The position numbers and the translations under genes are program-made. A stretch of 64,000 nucleotides of DNA, from NCBI GenBank assembly GCA_032249395.1, contig JAVVFY010000002.1:45421-109420 (forward strand), read 5' to 3'. The stretch is from Candidatus Aenigmatarchaeota archaeon. GTDB lineage: Archaea > Aenigmatarchaeota > Aenigmatarchaeia > CG10238-14 > SpSt-28. A model generated the notes under the pieces. The model saw only the letters and a program-made list of their open reading frames with translations, was not told the DNA's origin and ran no database searches. Positions 51,851 through 57,472 of this stretch are shown piece by piece (within the stretch, counting starts at the first letter, position 1; every line of letters begins with the position of its first letter).

Positions 51851-54586
51851 TCACCCTTCTATATTAAAGAATATTTTATTATCAAAGTTGAATCCTATCC
51901 TATTTTTACAATCGTAGCATCTTCCGTCAAAAGGTAAAGAGAAATAAATTCTACCACATTTCTCACACATGAAATTTTCAAACTCCAAGAACTTTTCATT
52001 ATTACCAATTATTGGATTGTCTCCAGCAACAAAATTCTCAGGATCGTTAGAAACATTGTTTTGTTTCTCAGATAAAAGCGTTAGCTTTAGTTGTTTACCA
52101 TTAGAAAACAAAACACTCTTTTTAATGCCCACTGCCTCAAAAATTCTCTCGACCGGTGGTAAGATTTGGTTTTCAATATAGTATTTGGTGTCTATCTTTA
52201 GTTTCTTCTCCAAAACATATTCTGGATCTTCTGCTCTCTTAGAAACGAGATCTGAACCAGCAACTATAACAAAATTTACTCTATCACCAACCATTGGAGT
52301 TTTCTCCGGGGATCTTTTCATCATCTTCTTCACTAGCTCTACATGTGGTTGAACGCCCTTATACTCATGTATGTTTCTAGACAAACTTTTGGTTATTATC
52401 AAATCCTCTATGTTTACATTTCCTTCCTCAAGATCCTTAATAACCCTTCTTACATAGTCGATCGCAGCCTCTATACTACCATCTTTTAACAACAATTCTA
52501 AAGTTTTGGATAAGACCTTTTCGGTTAAACCACACCAATCTTTTCTAACAGTCTCTATTCCTTTCATCACCATCTTCTCTTTAAATTTACCGTCTTCGAG
52601 TTCTACAGAAATTCCAGCATATCTCTTTTTAGCAATTATTAGAAACGATTTGAAGACGCTTTCTATTTTGGTTGTTAGTTTCCCCTCATAATAACTATTT
52701 AAAGTCTTCTCTATTTTCTCTCCAATCTCAAATGCCTCCTCAACGCTTTTAGCATTAACTTTAACCATTATAGAATCTGTATCCCCATAAATAACTTCCC
52801 ACTCTTTATTTGTCTTCTCAACTACTTTTTTAGACGTTTCTATGAAATATCTACCATAACTTGTGATAGAATTTGCTATGTCAAGAACGTAAACTCGTCC
52901 CCTGATATATCCTGTATAACCGTAGAACGCGTTAGCCACCCTCTTTAGTGCTTCTTGTTTAGCATCTAGAATAAATCTTATTTCTTCGTTTTTTTCTTTT
53001 TTCATTTCTTTTTTAACCTTATCTCTTTCATTAATTAGAACTTCTAAAATTTGAGGTATTATCCCCTTTTTTATCTCGGGTTTAACAAACTTCGTTCCAT
53101 AGGGTGAAACGATAACATCCTTTTCATCGTTGTCGACAACCAGCGTTGTGGGACATATATTGAAATTAATATAGATGGTTGGATACATTGATTTGAAGTC
53201 TAGATACACAACATAACAGTCTGTATATAATCCAACCTTTGGTTCTAAAACTATAGCACCTTTAAGTCCTCTAGTCTCTCTTTCCTCTTTCCTTCTTAAC
53301 ATTTCCTTGTTATCCGGTTTATTAGGTAGGACGTATCCCCTTTTATTAAACTCCCTGAGCAATAGACTTTCGATCCTTGCTGCTTCTCCTTCGTCTAAGA
53401 CATCTTGAAGTAATAACCCACAAACTTTGGACAACTCTATATATTTTTCAATAAGCCTCTTTTCTACTAATATTCTTAAAGTAAGAAGAGCATCATTTCT
53501 AGAATACTCTACAAGTTTATTTATGTCACCATTTTTTTCCCAAATTCTAGTTATTTCGCTTTGTTTAATATCTACTTTTCCTTCTCCAACAAAAAATCTA
53601 CCAACGTCATCCAACGAATATCTTTTTAACCTTATAAGCCCTCTTTCTGCCATTTCTTTAACAATTTCATAAACATCTACAACAACTCTTCCAATTATCT
53701 TGTTTTTGTATTTGTCTTCTTTGACCCTTTTTGAAACAAGTTGTTTGTCTTTTGTTCTACCTAAAAAGGCGGATATTTTGTTTTTTTCTAATCTTTTCTT
53801 AAGAAAAGGCAAATCAAACGAATTTATGTTATAACCAATAATAAAATCCGGATCATAAGCATCTATAATCTTGATTAACTCTTCCAACATGCTTTTTTCG
53901 TCTAAAAACACCTCAACATCTCTGGCTTTAACATTCCTCCAAGTCAAAACTATGGTTTTTTTGTTTTGATATGGATGATTAAAGGCTAAACTTATCATAA
54001 TAATTTTATCTTTCTCAGGGTTGGGTTTTCCTTCTGTTGCTGTTGTCTCTATATCAAGAGAAAGAATCCTAAAAGGTGCGTTTTGTTGGTATTCTTCCTC
54101 TTCGATTTTCTCCACTATAAACGTTCTTTCAGTTTTTATATTCACTGTTTTTATCTCCTTTCCTTCAACAACATACCACCTCATACCAAAAATACCAAAA
54201 TCCGACATGAATCTATATTTGAAAAGTATATCAGCTTCGAAAGTTTTAGAAGCCAATCCCTTCTTAACAACAAAATCTCTTACAAGAGGGACTTTAGAAG
54301 GATCTGAAAGATAAATAACCATCATCTTCGTTTTTTCTTTTCTATATCCTGTGGGTTCAAATTTTTCCGTTTCTTCCATCTTAACAATCAAGTTGCCGAA
54401 CTCTTTCTTAAGCTCTTTTTCTATTTCCTCTTTTTCTTTGATTGGTATAAAGTAAAAATAGGGTAAGTATTTTTCATAAAGAACACATATTGATTGACCG
54501 TCTTTCGTTTTACCAAAAATTCTAACAGTAGGAAAAGTGTTTGTAATAACATAGTCTACATCAAGAACTTGTAAAGAAACTTTCAT
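51851..54586 (-). CDS. polB: Family B DNA polymerase with C-terminal Cys4 zinc finger
   Basis: Exo motifs DIET, GYN..FD, Y...DA; Pol motifs DFKSMYP, K...N..YG, YGDTDS; tail FMCEKCGRIYFSLPFDGRCYDC. Confidence 0.96.
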   Translation of the reverse strand: MKVSLQVLDVDYVITNTFPTVRIFGKTKDGQSICVLYEKYLPYFYFIPIKEKEEIEKELKKEFGNLIVKMEETEKFEPTGYRKEKTKMMVIYLSDPSKVPLVRDFVVKKGLASKTFEADILFKYRFMSDFGIFGMRWYVVEGKEIKTVNIKTERTFIVEKIEEEEYQQNAPFRILSLDIETTATEGKPNPEKDKIIMISLAFNHPYQNKKTIVLTWRNVKARDVEVFLDEKSMLEELIKIIDAYDPDFIIGYNINSFDLPFLKKRLEKNKISAFLGRTKDKQLVSKRVKEDKYKNKIIGRVVVDVYEIVKEMAERGLIRLKRYSLDDVGRFFVGEGKVDIKQSEITRIWEKNGDINKLVEYSRNDALLTLRILVEKRLIEKYIELSKVCGLLLQDVLDEGEAARIESLLLREFNKRGYVLPNKPDNKEMLRRKEERETRGLKGAIVLEPKVGLYTDCYVVYLDFKSMYPTIYINFNICPTTLVVDNDEKDVIVSPYGTKFVKPEIKKGIIPQILEVLINERDKVKKEMKKEKNEEIRFILDAKQEALKRVANAFYGYTGYIRGRVYVLDIANSITSYGRYFIETSKKVVEKTNKEWEVIYGDTDSIMVKVNAKSVEEAFEIGEKIEKTLNSYYEGKLTTKIESVFKSFLIIAKKRYAGISVELEDGKFKEKMVMKGIETVRKDWCGLTEKVLSKTLELLLKDGSIEAAIDYVRRVIKDLEEGNVNIEDLIITKSLSRNIHEYKGVQPHVELVKKMMKRSPEKTPMVGDRVNFVIVAGSDLVSKRAEDPEYVLEKKLKIDTKYYIENQILPPVERIFEAVGIKKSVLFSNGKQLKLTLLSEKQNNVSNDPENFVAGDNPIIGNNEKFLEFENFMCEKCGRIYFSLPFDGRCYDCKNRIGFNFDNKIFFNIEG

Positions 54587-54652
54587 GTATCTTTTAAAGT
54601 TGTCGTTTTAAAACTTTTTTGTTTATTGGAATATATTCTTTACATTGAATCA

Positions 54653-55627
54653 TTATTCTATCTTTCTTTGTTTCAAAAATGCTTTCCTTCCACTCGGTAA
54701 AAAAAATATGTTTATTCCTTTATAAACTTTAAACAAAGAATCTTTCGCTCCAACAATAACCAGAGCGTCTGGAACTTCATCCATTAGAAATAAATCAACT
54801 CTATACATTTTTTTGGAAATTAAAAAAGAAGGGTTAAGATGCCTTCTTTCTATCAAAGAGATTAATACGTCTACATCTTTTTCGTCTCTATTTTTATACT
54901 TTTCAACAACGCTTGAATTAAGAACAAACAACTTAAAATCGTTAATGTAGAATCTAACTATATCTCCTTCTATTTTAAACTCTTTATCTCTAACTTTTAT
55001 TACGTCATTATAAACTGTAACTTCTTCCTCGAGTTTAGACACTTTTCTAAAGAAAGACAGGGAAGGAAAGAAAATTTTATCTCCAATTATTTTTTCTTCC
55101 TCTTTTTTTACCCTAATAGCTACAACATCATCGTAGAAAAGTTTATCTACAATGTTAGCATCTAATTGTATTGTTTCATATGCTGTAAAATCTTCTAGCG
55201 TAACACTGTATGTTGTTTTATCTTTAACCATACCTATCACTACCAGCTGGTTATCGCTTTTTATTTTCTTTAACTTAGATAATGAGATCACATTGTTTAA
55301 CATGTTGTTTTCTTGTATTATCTTAGAAAGAACTTCAAACCTTTTTTTAATCATTTCTAAAACATCTTCTATTGAAAAACTCTTTATTTCCTCAAGATAA
55401 ACAACTTTTATTTCTCCTGTACTATTAGAAGAAGCAGTAAAGAGAAATTCTTTTAGTATGTTTTCATCAACAATAATTAAATTTTTGCTTTTCGCAAACT
55501 CTATTAATTTATTTATGTCAATTTCTTTATTAAGAATTTCATCAAGAGCTTGTGGTGTTATTTGAAGGTGGTTATCTAAAAAAATTTTAACAATCGTCTT
55601 CTTATCTTCTTCTACCTTCGTTGTCAT
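54653..55627 (-). CDS. Truncated, inactivated homologue of the PolD small subunit DP1 (polymerase B-subunit-like)
   Basis: DP1-like N-terminal helical domain (IFLDNHLQITPQAL), RF..L..II, OB fold (VIGMV.DK...LED.T...DDVVAI...IFFP), RRHLNP, MDEVPD; metal-ligand motifs missing. Confidence 0.72.
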   Translation of the reverse strand: MTTKVEEDKKTIVKIFLDNHLQITPQALDEILNKEIDINKLIEFAKSKNLIIVDENILKEFLFTASSNSTGEIKVVYLEEIKSFSIEDVLEMIKKRFEVLSKIIQENNMLNNVISLSKLKKIKSDNQLVVIGMVKDKTTYSVTLEDFTAYETIQLDANIVDKLFYDDVVAIRVKKEEEKIIGDKIFFPSLSFFRKVSKLEEEVTVYNDVIKVRDKEFKIEGDIVRFYINDFKLFVLNSSVVEKYKNRDEKDVDVLISLIERRHLNPSFLISKKMYRVDLFLMDEVPDALVIVGAKDSLFKVYKGINIFFLPSGRKAFLKQRKIE

Positions 55628-55851
55628 ATAATTCTTTTCTTATACATTAAAATTTTGCCTGCCCTTATTTTTTCGGCTTTTCCTTCTTCCACCAGTTCTT
55701 CCAAATACTTCTTAACAGTGTTCCAACTAACTTCTTTCCCTAGTTTAGTGGATACCATCCTCCTTATCGCCTCTACGTTTAAAGGCAAATGAACATCTAA
55801 AACGCCTAGAAGAATTGCAACGAAAAAATGTCTATATGGTGTTCTTCCCAT
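55624..55851 (-). CDS. Small winged-helix DNA-binding protein
   Basis: VSWNTVKKYLEELVEEGKAEK; stop overlaps the DP1-like start (ATGA). Confidence 0.75.
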   Translation of the reverse strand: MGRTPYRHFFVAILLGVLDVHLPLNVEAIRRMVSTKLGKEVSWNTVKKYLEELVEEGKAEKIRAGKILMYKKRII

Positions 55852-56214
55852 TTTGTTTTTATTTCGCTCTGAGATATTTATTACTTTTCTAAAAAATTTA
55901 TGAACAAGCAGAAATATTTTAAAATATACATAATTTTTTATGAGAAATTATAATTTTATGAGATGAGACAAAAATAAATATGACTACTTGGAAAAAACAA
56001 TGAGAAGTAAAAATTAAGTTAAACAGAGTATATAGGTATAAGAACGGAGAAGCGTTACAAAATCTCTTTAATCACAACAACATTTGTTTAGAAATAAAAG
56101 TTATAAACAATTCCAAAAGATCATAAAAAAATATATAGTTGTTTTAAATCGAATTAAGCTTAAATATATAGTCTATATATTCATCAGATCAAATTCTTTA
56201 TGTTTTCTCATAAT

Positions 56215-56589
56215 TTATTCCAAATCGTTTCTCGTTTCAAATATATTCCTTAACATTAAAATCTTAGACTGGATTGTTTTAATTTTCTCTATATCTCTTA
56301 CAGCACTATATATTCTAGGATAGGTATTTACTTTCTCTAAAAAATTTAACTTAACTAAATTGTCAAGCCTTTTTCTTAAAGTTTCGATGTTAATTTTTAT
56401 TCCTTCTCTCTTTAAAAATTCATGTAGAGTTTTTAAATCGTAAGAATTTATTTCACCAGATAAAGGATCTATAGTTTTTCCATAAAATTTTTGGAGAATT
56501 TTTACATTTATGACATCAAATTTTGTTAAAATAGTAAAATCGATTTTATCTTCATTTTTTAAACTCTCTTTTAAAAAAAATTCTTTCAT
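56215..56589 (-). CDS. Winged-helix protein
   Basis: INIETLRKRLDNLVKLNFLEKVNTYPRIY. Confidence 0.7.
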   Translation of the reverse strand: MKEFFLKESLKNEDKIDFTILTKFDVINVKILQKFYGKTIDPLSGEINSYDLKTLHEFLKREGIKINIETLRKRLDNLVKLNFLEKVNTYPRIYSAVRDIEKIKTIQSKILMLRNIFETRNDLE

Positions 56590-56625: not shown

Positions 56626-57300
56626 TCACAAAAGACTTACGATATCTGCTTTTATTTCTCCGTTTTTTATCTCTATTAATCCAAAATAACCTTCTACAAA
56701 CTTCCCAACGTTTAAAACAACAGTATTTTTTATGATATCTTTTCCTAAACTTTCGTGTATATGAGCACACACGGCAACCTTAGGAGAAAATTCTTCTATT
56801 ATTTTTCTAACTGCTTGAGAACCAACATGTTTATTACCAACTATATCTAAAGTAGAGCTATAAGGGGGAGCATGTGTTGCTTGTATTTTTATTTCTTTAT
56901 TCTTAACAAACTCGTGAGCAATCCTTAAACCTTCTTCTATTTCTTTTTCTGATGGTTCGTATGGAGTATTAAAGGGTGTTTGTGCTCCTCCAAATCCATA
57001 AAATCCAACATTTTCTATTTCTTCTCCCCGTTGGTGAAGCAAAACATTTTCTTTTTGAAATAGAGGAATTAGTTCTTTATCCCAAGTGCCAGGAGTTATT
57101 AGAATTTTTTTAAAATATGTTTTTGCTTCTTCTAAAAAAATTTTACCGATATCTTTTGCATCAAAACCCTTTGGAAAAGAAGAATCAGCAATATCCCCAA
57201 CAGATAACAATATTTTTGGTTCGTATGATGCTACCTTTTCTAATAATACTGGCAGTCTTTCTATTTCGTTATGTATACAACCAATTACAGCTATTTTCAT
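56626..57300 (-). CDS. Calcineurin-like metallophosphoesterase (Icc-related)
   Basis: GCIH, GD..D, PGTWD, THAPP, HVGS, AHIHES. Confidence 0.85.
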   Translation of the reverse strand: MKIAVIGCIHNEIERLPVLLEKVASYEPKILLSVGDIADSSFPKGFDAKDIGKIFLEEAKTYFKKILITPGTWDKELIPLFQKENVLLHQRGEEIENVGFYGFGGAQTPFNTPYEPSEKEIEEGLRIAHEFVKNKEIKIQATHAPPYSSTLDIVGNKHVGSQAVRKIIEEFSPKVAVCAHIHESLGKDIIKNTVVLNVGKFVEGYFGLIEIKNGEIKADIVSLL

Positions 57301-57365: not shown

Positions 57366-57472
57366 GCCCCCTTCGTCTAGCCCGGTCAAGGATACAGCCC
57401 TTTCGAGAAGAAAGGTTTGATAAAAGAATGAGAAGAAAGGCTGGGACGGGGGTTCAAATCCCCCAGGGGGCA
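57366..57472 (+). tRNA. tRNA-Glu(TTC) with 32-nt intron at 37/38 (57406-57437)
   Basis: GCCCCCT/AGGGGGC acceptor stem; CAGCC-CT-TTC-G[intron]A-GGCTG; GGGGG-TTCAAAT-CCCCC T arm. Confidence 0.9.

Follow-up and report, generated by a model that had tools for sequence, protein, structure and literature searches.

Gene layout of the polymerase locus

We analysed a 64,000-nt stretch of DNA from Candidatus Aenigmatarchaeota archaeon (assembly GCA_032249395.1, contig JAVVFY010000002.1, positions 45,421 to 109,420), hereafter the window, in which the gene for a family-B DNA polymerase (PolB) lies beside a gene for a protein resembling DP1, the small subunit of archaeal polymerase D (PolD). The first-pass annotation of the window had described three co-oriented genes at this locus and had proposed that PolB, which ends in a zinc finger like the one in DP2, PolD's large subunit, may have its own inactive B subunit, as eukaryotic replicative polymerases do. 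The layout it gave is borne out by the open reading frames (ORFs). The three genes occupy positions 51851-55851 of the minus strand, in the order wHTH, DP1-like, PolB:

51851-54586, minus strand: PolB (911 aa), from the ORF list and Pfam/NCBIfam; putatively of the PolB-DP2CTD, 'B6-aenigma1' type, with intact exonuclease and polymerase domains and a C-terminal tail
54653-55627, minus strand: DP1-like protein (324 aa), from the ORF list
55624-55851, minus strand: small winged-helix (wHTH) protein (75 aa), from the ORF list and a structure model

The stop codon of the wHTH gene and the ATG of the DP1-like gene overlap as ATGA, and 66 nt separate the DP1-like gene from PolB. G+C content of the window is ~31%, and the assembly as a whole amounts to 753 kb in 25 contigs, with an estimated completeness of 89.5%.

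An intact polymerase with a DP2-like zinc finger

PolB covers both of its catalytic domain families essentially from end to end, at positions 3-452 of 453 for DNA_pol_B (PF00136, E 6.6e-121) and 2-242 of 242 for the exonuclease domain (PF03104, E 8.7e-41). Its translation contains DIE, NINSFD, YSRND, DFKSMYPT, KRVANAFYGY, YGDTDS and KKRY, which we take to be the exonuclease and polymerase motifs. With full-length coverage and the motifs legible, the earlier statement that these were kept stands. Beyond the thumb domain, the tail reads GKQLKLTLL, then ~32 poorly conserved residues, FMCEKCGRIYFSLPFDGRCYDC and 18 final residues, and includes two features:

52073-52093, minus strand: PIP-like segment QLKLTLL, directly after the PolB thumb domain, recognized by reading the tails
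51908-51967, minus strand: four-Cys zinc finger CEKCGRIYFSLPFDGRCYDC, a homologue of Zn-III, the third such finger in DP2

The canonical PCNA-interacting protein (PIP) box follows the consensus Qxx[LIM]xx[FYW][FYW]. QLKLTLL lacks the aromatic pair of this consensus, and the tails of relatives read Qxx[LI]xx[ILV]. What does hold of the PIP-like designation is conservation, as the pattern G[KR]Qxx[LI]xx[ILV] is retained in nearly all of 25 tails (one, from locus L037, has L for Q). The segment may contact PCNA.

All four cysteines of the finger are invariant in an alignment of 19 PolB tails from across the phylum, and a single four-Cys motif is all that we see in the window's tail and in each of the 24 relatives' tails read. 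When PDB sequences were searched with a profile of the 19 tails, Zn-III of DP2 was matched in three PolD structures: 6knb_B (residues 1127-1160, E 2.6e-11), 6t8h_B (E 4.2e-10) and 6hms_B (E about 4e-10). The next family, the adenylate kinase lid, came in at E 3.2e-4, seven orders of magnitude behind. These data agree with the original assignment of the finger to the DP2 pattern.

A DP1 homologue without a metal site

The 324-aa protein can be divided into three parts:

55424-55627, minus strand: N-terminal helical domain (residues 1-68), matched by PF22317 (8.1e-7); four helices in the model
55058-55372, minus strand: OB fold (about residues 86-190), from profile search and hhalign; model strands 127-186
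54653-55030, minus strand: phosphoesterase remnant (residues 200-324 plus the stop codon), with RRHLNP and DEVPD kept and metal ligands lost

NCBIfam DP1 models reach residues 7-204 of this protein at scores far under their cut-offs; NF003118, for example, gives E 1.2e-16 and 60.7 bits, where the cut-off is 445. A profile of the 16-member DP1-like family matches P. abyssi DP1 (6t8h_A) at E 4.6e-12 and, across the OB fold, the DP1 proteins of P. abyssi and T. kodakarensis at 5e-12 to 1e-10. Matches of the same profile to isolated DP1 N-domains are weak (2kxe_A, 0.016; 7e15_C, 0.022), and the stretch RRHLNP...DEVPD aligns weakly, by HMMER, with DP1 residues 521-575. Aligned by hhalign with ten canonical DP1s from DPANN and Methanosarcinales, the short family scores a probability of 98.9 (E 1.5e-17) over residues 4-203, where the local alignment ends, leaving the C-terminal part unaligned. 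The correspondence of that part to DP1 thus rests on the weaker HMMER stretch together with structural alignment.

The AlphaFold model of the protein has a pLDDT of 85.4, and its top Foldseek match is DP1 (9f2a_A, E 4.4e-13). In VIA alignments, the model matches DP1 5ihe_A with Z 19.7 (248 residues aligned, root-mean-square deviation 3.0), spanning DP1 residues 194-613. B subunits follow, namely those of Pol delta (9ekb_B, Z 18.6), Pol epsilon (7pfo_A, Z 17.9, 311 residues aligned, N-domain included) and Pol alpha (4y97_G, Z 16.7). These scores speak to likeness of fold only; the phosphoesterase part is about half-size here. Since alignments to B subunits of the POLA2/POLD2/POLE2 type cover 241-311 residues, the modelled protein appears to possess their combination of OB fold and inactive phosphoesterase fold. 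The structural likeness to DP1 and to all three eukaryotic B subunits, which the first-pass annotation had put forward as a check, is therefore strong (Z 16.7-19.7). Its reading of the retained parts, namely the DP1 N-terminal domain, the OB fold, RRHLxP and DEVPD, is likewise upheld by PF22317 and by the profile, hhalign and structural matches. We conclude that the protein is a true homologue of DP1 and the B subunits.

What has been lost is equally clear. Only two histidines occur in the whole protein, and just one of these falls in the ~130 residues past the OB fold, where it belongs to RRH. A single histidine in the phosphoesterase remnant is the rule in the family (14/16 members; the other two have two), as compared with 10-13 histidines in canonical DP1s (n = 4 counted). 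With a single histidine left after the OB fold, the metal-binding site cannot form. Neither the five canonical phosphoesterase motifs with their His/Asp ligands nor a score reaching the NCBIfam cut-off was found for this protein. In other DPANN and in family f11 of this phylum, canonical DP1s measure 460-609 aa. The protein is a DP1 devoid of the metal site and of roughly half of its phosphoesterase domain, in line with the losses that the first-pass annotation had described.

The short form is conserved across the phylum

A truncated, inactivated gene of this kind might be a nascent pseudogene, the recently decayed remnant of the organism's sole DP1, with no function of its own. Loss of every metal ligand and of half a domain is what decay would produce, and the gene does evolve faster than its neighbours: in five related genomes its product is 36-56% identical to that of the window, versus 63-73% for PolB (loci L004-L008), 64-78% for wHTH and 77-88% for the proteasome subunit and CPSF-like proteins encoded in the same block. 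Against this, we identified 36 homologues of 293-376 aa, with identities down to 42%, and when the window's protein is aligned with 15 of these homologues (16 sequences in all), 61 columns are invariant, among them ERRHLNPSF and IGMxKDKT. A profile of the short form matches 99/151 genomes of the phylum, with every listed open frame at or below 452 aa, and a stop codon was seen in one match (in genome G107) and in none of the others. An exhaustive profile search of proteins clustered at 50% identity returned 608 representatives at E <=0.001 and 212 at <=1e-10; among the listed representatives whose length was measured (n = 149), 144 fall below 425 aa and the other 5 measure at least 475 aa. The confident structure model also argues against decay. 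Because the short form keeps its length and sequence across the phylum, the gene is not a case of recent decay, and we attach next to no probability to that explanation.

Short DP1 is found where DP2 is missing

No DP2 was found in the window's own assembly with PF03833 and TIGR00354, each of which performed as expected on positive controls in three archaeal genomes; nor was a second DP1, the DP1-like gene being the only one of its kind. The check for a canonical DP1/DP2 pair elsewhere in the genome thus came back negative, in an assembly of the completeness given above. A second PolB, of 815 aa, is encoded on contig C3 (locus L003, 352-2799). It has no zinc finger and terminates in GLEAWFKK, a canonical PCNA-binding end. 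Genes for GINS (contig C1) and PCNA are both present in the genome.

Across the phylum, 143 of the 151 genomes sampled gave no DP2 match, with the proviso that a non-match in an incomplete genome is no proof of absence. The eight genomes with DP2 comprise all seven of family f11 and one other, G090. Family f11 is also set apart by its DP1: the short-DP1 profile matches 0/7 of its genomes, and a full-length DP1 of 460-523 aa was found in 5/5 of those tested. In G090 (family f3), a DP2 and a DP1-like match lie next to each other on one small contig (C64), and a short DP1 is found elsewhere in the same genome. This DP2/DP1 pair could be a retained PolD, the result of transfer, or a binning error.

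Linkage of the DP1-like and PolB genes

In all five loci from close relatives, the DP1-like gene is followed by PolB. Because the entire neighbourhood is syntenic in these genomes, such adjacency carries little weight. We therefore looked to 20 of the 99 matching genomes, hand-picked for spread over 12 families. The DP1-like gene is present in 20/20 of these loci, and the pair is adjacent and co-oriented in 16/20, with the DP1-like gene directly upstream of PolB in 15 and directly downstream in one (L033). In the other four, the genes share a strand and are separated by 2.1 kb (L036), are convergent and 1.5 kb apart (L028 and L031), or, in L032, no PolB is found within 7 kb of the DP1-like gene. 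Synteny of the pair, which had been named as a further check, thus extends well beyond close relatives. All 19 PolBs found in these loci end in the four-Cys tail, with CxC for the second CxxC in seven, and genomes that lack DP2 combine the finger-bearing PolB with a short DP1. The finger-bearing PolB frame in L036 (398-4417, minus strand) encodes 1339 aa, ~430 residues more than the others; the extra residues may be an intein.

Do the two proteins necessarily work together? It is conceivable that they function apart, with the finger being a generic zinc ribbon whose partner is DNA, PCNA or something else, and the DP1-like protein serving as a free scaffold that binds GINS or single-stranded DNA. 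Zinc ribbons are common, and several of our own results pull in this direction, at the same time weighing against a joint holoenzyme. Used alone, the window's PolB tail found no DP2 among PDB sequences, its best match being an unrelated VapC6 zinc ribbon at E 0.57. Only 18 residues follow the finger, as compared with a finger at 1124-1157 of 1275 in DP2 6t8h_B; hence the remainder of the DP2 C-terminal domain (CTD), its helical part, is absent. The four non-adjacent loci belong here as well. Other points bear on the joint holoenzyme itself: the window's finger has YFSLPF, versus YRRxPL in the family consensus and in DP2, indicating that the genus has drifted; synteny among close relatives has limited weight; and the DP1-like gene evolves rapidly. 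Absence of DP2 is also unproven for this genome, as the assembly is 89.5% complete and split into 25 contigs. Homologies, fold, loss of metal ligands, the failure to find DP2 in the assembly, and the phylum-wide conservation of both the short DP1 and the gene pair were all obtained here, while physical interaction between PolB and DP1 comes from print (PMC12680538, main text), where it concerns Aenigmatarchaeota proteins other than those of the window.

Three lines of evidence counter the view that the proteins act separately: the margin of seven orders of magnitude by which the tail profile ranks DP2 Zn-III before any other family, the co-occurrence of finger-bearing PolB and short DP1 in genomes where DP2 is missing, and the yeast two-hybrid (Y2H) interaction reported in the main text of PMC12680538, which was seen with none of the finger-less PolBs. 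We consider separate function very unlikely, and favour a joint holoenzyme of PolB and DP1.

The winged-helix gene and the upstream region

The 75-aa wHTH protein is predicted to fold into three helices and a beta hairpin of two strands (pLDDT 85.2). Pfam searches gave winged-helix matches, all below cut-off, and fold searches returned generic DNA-binding winged helices only, for example RosR, Fur, SmtB and that of Hop2, none of them better than E 7.7e-4. Members of the family keep VSWNT.KKY..EL, and distant ones begin with RGRPSKR, which to our eye resembles an AT-hook. The gene immediately precedes the DP1-like gene in 4/4 close loci that reach that far. In 13 of the 20 phylum loci it is absent, and in 12 of these 13 an ORC1-type gene is found no more than 2.2 kb upstream, as the immediate neighbour in 10; all 11 ORC1-type proteins scanned pass the NCBIfam cut-off. 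The idea that wHTH is a split-off winged-helix domain of Orc1/Cdc6 was considered and rejected, as the wHTH family, compared by hhalign with 11 ORC1 proteins, reached a probability of 0.1, and the Orc1 of this genome (334 aa; contig C1, locus L041, 1495-2499) retains its C-terminal domain. This protein, encoded on a contig other than that of the window, is the only clear Orc1/Cdc6 of the genome; it is compact, scoring 233 bits on TIGR02928, versus ~437 for those beside the pair elsewhere.

One interpretation is that wHTH, in the taxonomic order to which the window belongs, is a third, DNA-binding subunit or a loader of the holoenzyme formed by PolB and the inactive DP1. It would then be an archaeal counterpart of known winged-helix contacts in Pol delta and PolD; in the former, the N-domain of Pol32/p66 sits on the B subunit, and in the latter the winged helix of Rpa2 contacts the polymerase. 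The ATGA overlap, a sign of translational coupling to the DP1-like gene, fits this idea, as do the 64-78% identity of wHTH among close relatives and its place immediately before the DP1-like gene in 7/20 phylum loci, all from the window's own taxonomic order (75-113 aa; families f1, f3 and f6). By their titles, PDB entries 9f29 and 9f2a indicate that docking of a winged helix on PolD is possible. There is also one natural fusion, the metagenomic protein P0034 (376 aa), in which wHTH is joined to the DP1-like protein. As this is a single cluster with two member sequences and one 2.1-kb contig, and further fusions of wHTH to longer proteins were not found, it could stem from loss of a stop codon or be erroneous. 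The fold, moreover, is that of ordinary DNA-binding regulators, the AT-hook-like start of distant members points the same way, and the gene is replaced by orc1 nearby in most loci that lack it. A plain autoregulator of the operon would account for everything. These data make a subunit role unlikely; wHTH is more likely to be a plain regulator or a protein that binds the origin region.

Upstream of wHTH lie a further ORF and a metallophosphoesterase gene:

56215-56589, minus strand: 124-aa ORF, no family; accompanies the polymerase genes
56626-57300, minus strand: calcineurin-like metallophosphoesterase, 224 aa (PF14582, 4.6e-16)

The metallophosphoesterase, the 124-aa ORF and wHTH appear in the window's order in 4/4 close loci that extend far enough upstream (the fifth, L005, starts at the DP1-like gene), and a metallophosphoesterase is found within 7 kb of the polymerase genes in 4/5 close and 10/20 phylum loci. 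Its first motif reads GCIH in the window, versus GD.H or SD.H in three relatives (L023, L026 and L028). The possibility that it is the detached nuclease domain of DP1 received no support, as a PDB search yielded Aquifex aq_1956 (2yvt_A, 6.1e-9) as the sole clear relative and no DP1.

Between the 124-aa ORF and wHTH is a spacer of 363 nt (55852-56214), AT-rich and unusually long for a compact genome. In relatives, this spacer measures 381-567 nt, and words resembling TTCTCATAAAA recur close to the gene. As an enriched element these words were dismissed: 19 are present in the window versus 13.5 expected, and 12/100 shuffles reached 19. No Rfam family was found in the spacer, which could be a promoter, an operator or part of an origin. 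On the other side of the locus, PolB is followed by genes for a proteasome beta subunit and then a CPSF-like nuclease. A tRNA match at 57366-57472 (plus strand; 46.1 bits) is 107 nt long versus the 71 positions of the model, so the gene probably has an intron of ~36 nt.

A model for the polymerase

We think it highly probable that the locus is a replicative polymerase operon, encoding a finger-bearing PolB holoenzyme with an inactive, DP1-derived B subunit. The following scenario would explain its features. In most of the phylum, where DP2 is not detectable, a proofreading PolB would have acquired the C-terminal zinc finger of DP2. This finger is the element by which DP2 docks onto DP1, and PolB would use it to hold the retained DP1. 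The nuclease of DP1 may have been made redundant by the exonuclease of PolB itself, and DP1 would then have lost its metal site along with roughly half of the phosphoesterase domain, leaving a B subunit with no catalytic role. What the N-terminal domain of DP1 might do in such an enzyme is suggested by analogy: since PMC9023282 reports in its abstract that the DP1 N-domain (DP1N) of T. kodakarensis binds Gins51C, the domain retained here may tether the polymerase to GINS/CMG.

The proposal of a dedicated inactive B subunit in the eukaryotic manner is thus supported by homology, fold and distribution, yet it is already in print in the main texts of PMC7544198 and PMC12680538. Both papers have claimed its significance for the origin of eukaryotic polymerases. 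What the window adds is one more genome, and the observations that the pair is operonic in most of the families sampled, that the B subunit is truncated besides being inactivated, that family f11 still has a full PolD, and that the gene upstream of the pair alternates between orc1 and wHTH. A word search of the two main texts, supplements apart, found no mention of adjacency of the pair, of truncation, or of orc1 or a winged-helix gene as a neighbour. In PMC12680538, 'operon' and 'neighbo' occur once each, in connection with other genes.

Comparison with known systems

The closest known system is that described by Kazlauskas et al. (2020, NAR, PMC7544198), whose main text defines a PolB group B6 of Aenigmarchaeota, including 'B6-aenigma1', and describes a corresponding DP1 clade that is inactive and a lack of DP2 in most of the phylum. 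Those authors proposed that the B6 PolB took the place of DP2 and foreshadows the arrangement seen in eukaryotes. As far as that text goes, B6-aenigma1 PolB and its DP1 show no essential difference from the window's pair: each has one C-terminal metal-binding motif closest to DP2 Zn-III and an inactive DP1, in the same phylum, with no DP2 found. We accordingly place the window's PolB in the B6-aenigma1 type, a provisional assignment made by architecture and phylum.

A 2025 study (PMC12680538) reports in its main text that both Aenigmatarchaeota and Baldrarchaeia lack DP2 and keep DP1, and that DP1 of Aenigmatarchaeota binds PolB-DP2CTD and not canonical PolBs, from AlphaFold3 and Y2H. It terms the Aenigmatarchaeota CTD a 'degenerate DP2CTD' and puts 'B6-aenigma2' sequences down to contamination. 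Thus, the pairing of PolB with an inactive DP1 is already known, both in concept and for this phylum, from the 2020 description and the 2025 Y2H interaction. PolB3 of Baldrarchaeia resembles the window's PolB in that DP2 is lost, DP1 is kept and a PolB-DP2CTD fusion is reported as the DP1 binder; by the same paper's description, the CTD is full-length there and degenerate in Aenigmatarchaeota.

With archaeal PolD (P. abyssi 6t8h and 5ihe), the window's pair shares the N-domain, OB fold and phosphoesterase scaffold of the small subunit as well as the zinc finger of the catalytic subunit. The two differ in that the catalytic subunit is a family-B enzyme here and a double-psi beta-barrel DP2 there. 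In addition, the window's DP1 is nuclease-dead and ~150-300 residues shorter, and the rest of the DP2 CTD, its helical part, has no counterpart.

In Pol alpha, delta and epsilon of eukaryotes, a family-B polymerase holds an inactive B subunit homologous to DP1 (POLA2, POLD2 and POLE2) by way of a C-terminal Cys domain, an arrangement that the window's pair would share. The eukaryotic enzymes have two Cys motifs, CysA and CysB, as compared with one in the window, and their B subunits are much larger than the window's, in which the phosphoesterase domain is truncated besides being inactive; further accessory subunits are none that we can show. Even so, with its family-B catalytic subunit, Cys-bearing tail and inactive DP1 relative, a pair of this kind offers the best archaeal model for the origin of the eukaryotic arrangement of a family-B subunit, a Cys-rich CTD and an inactive B subunit.

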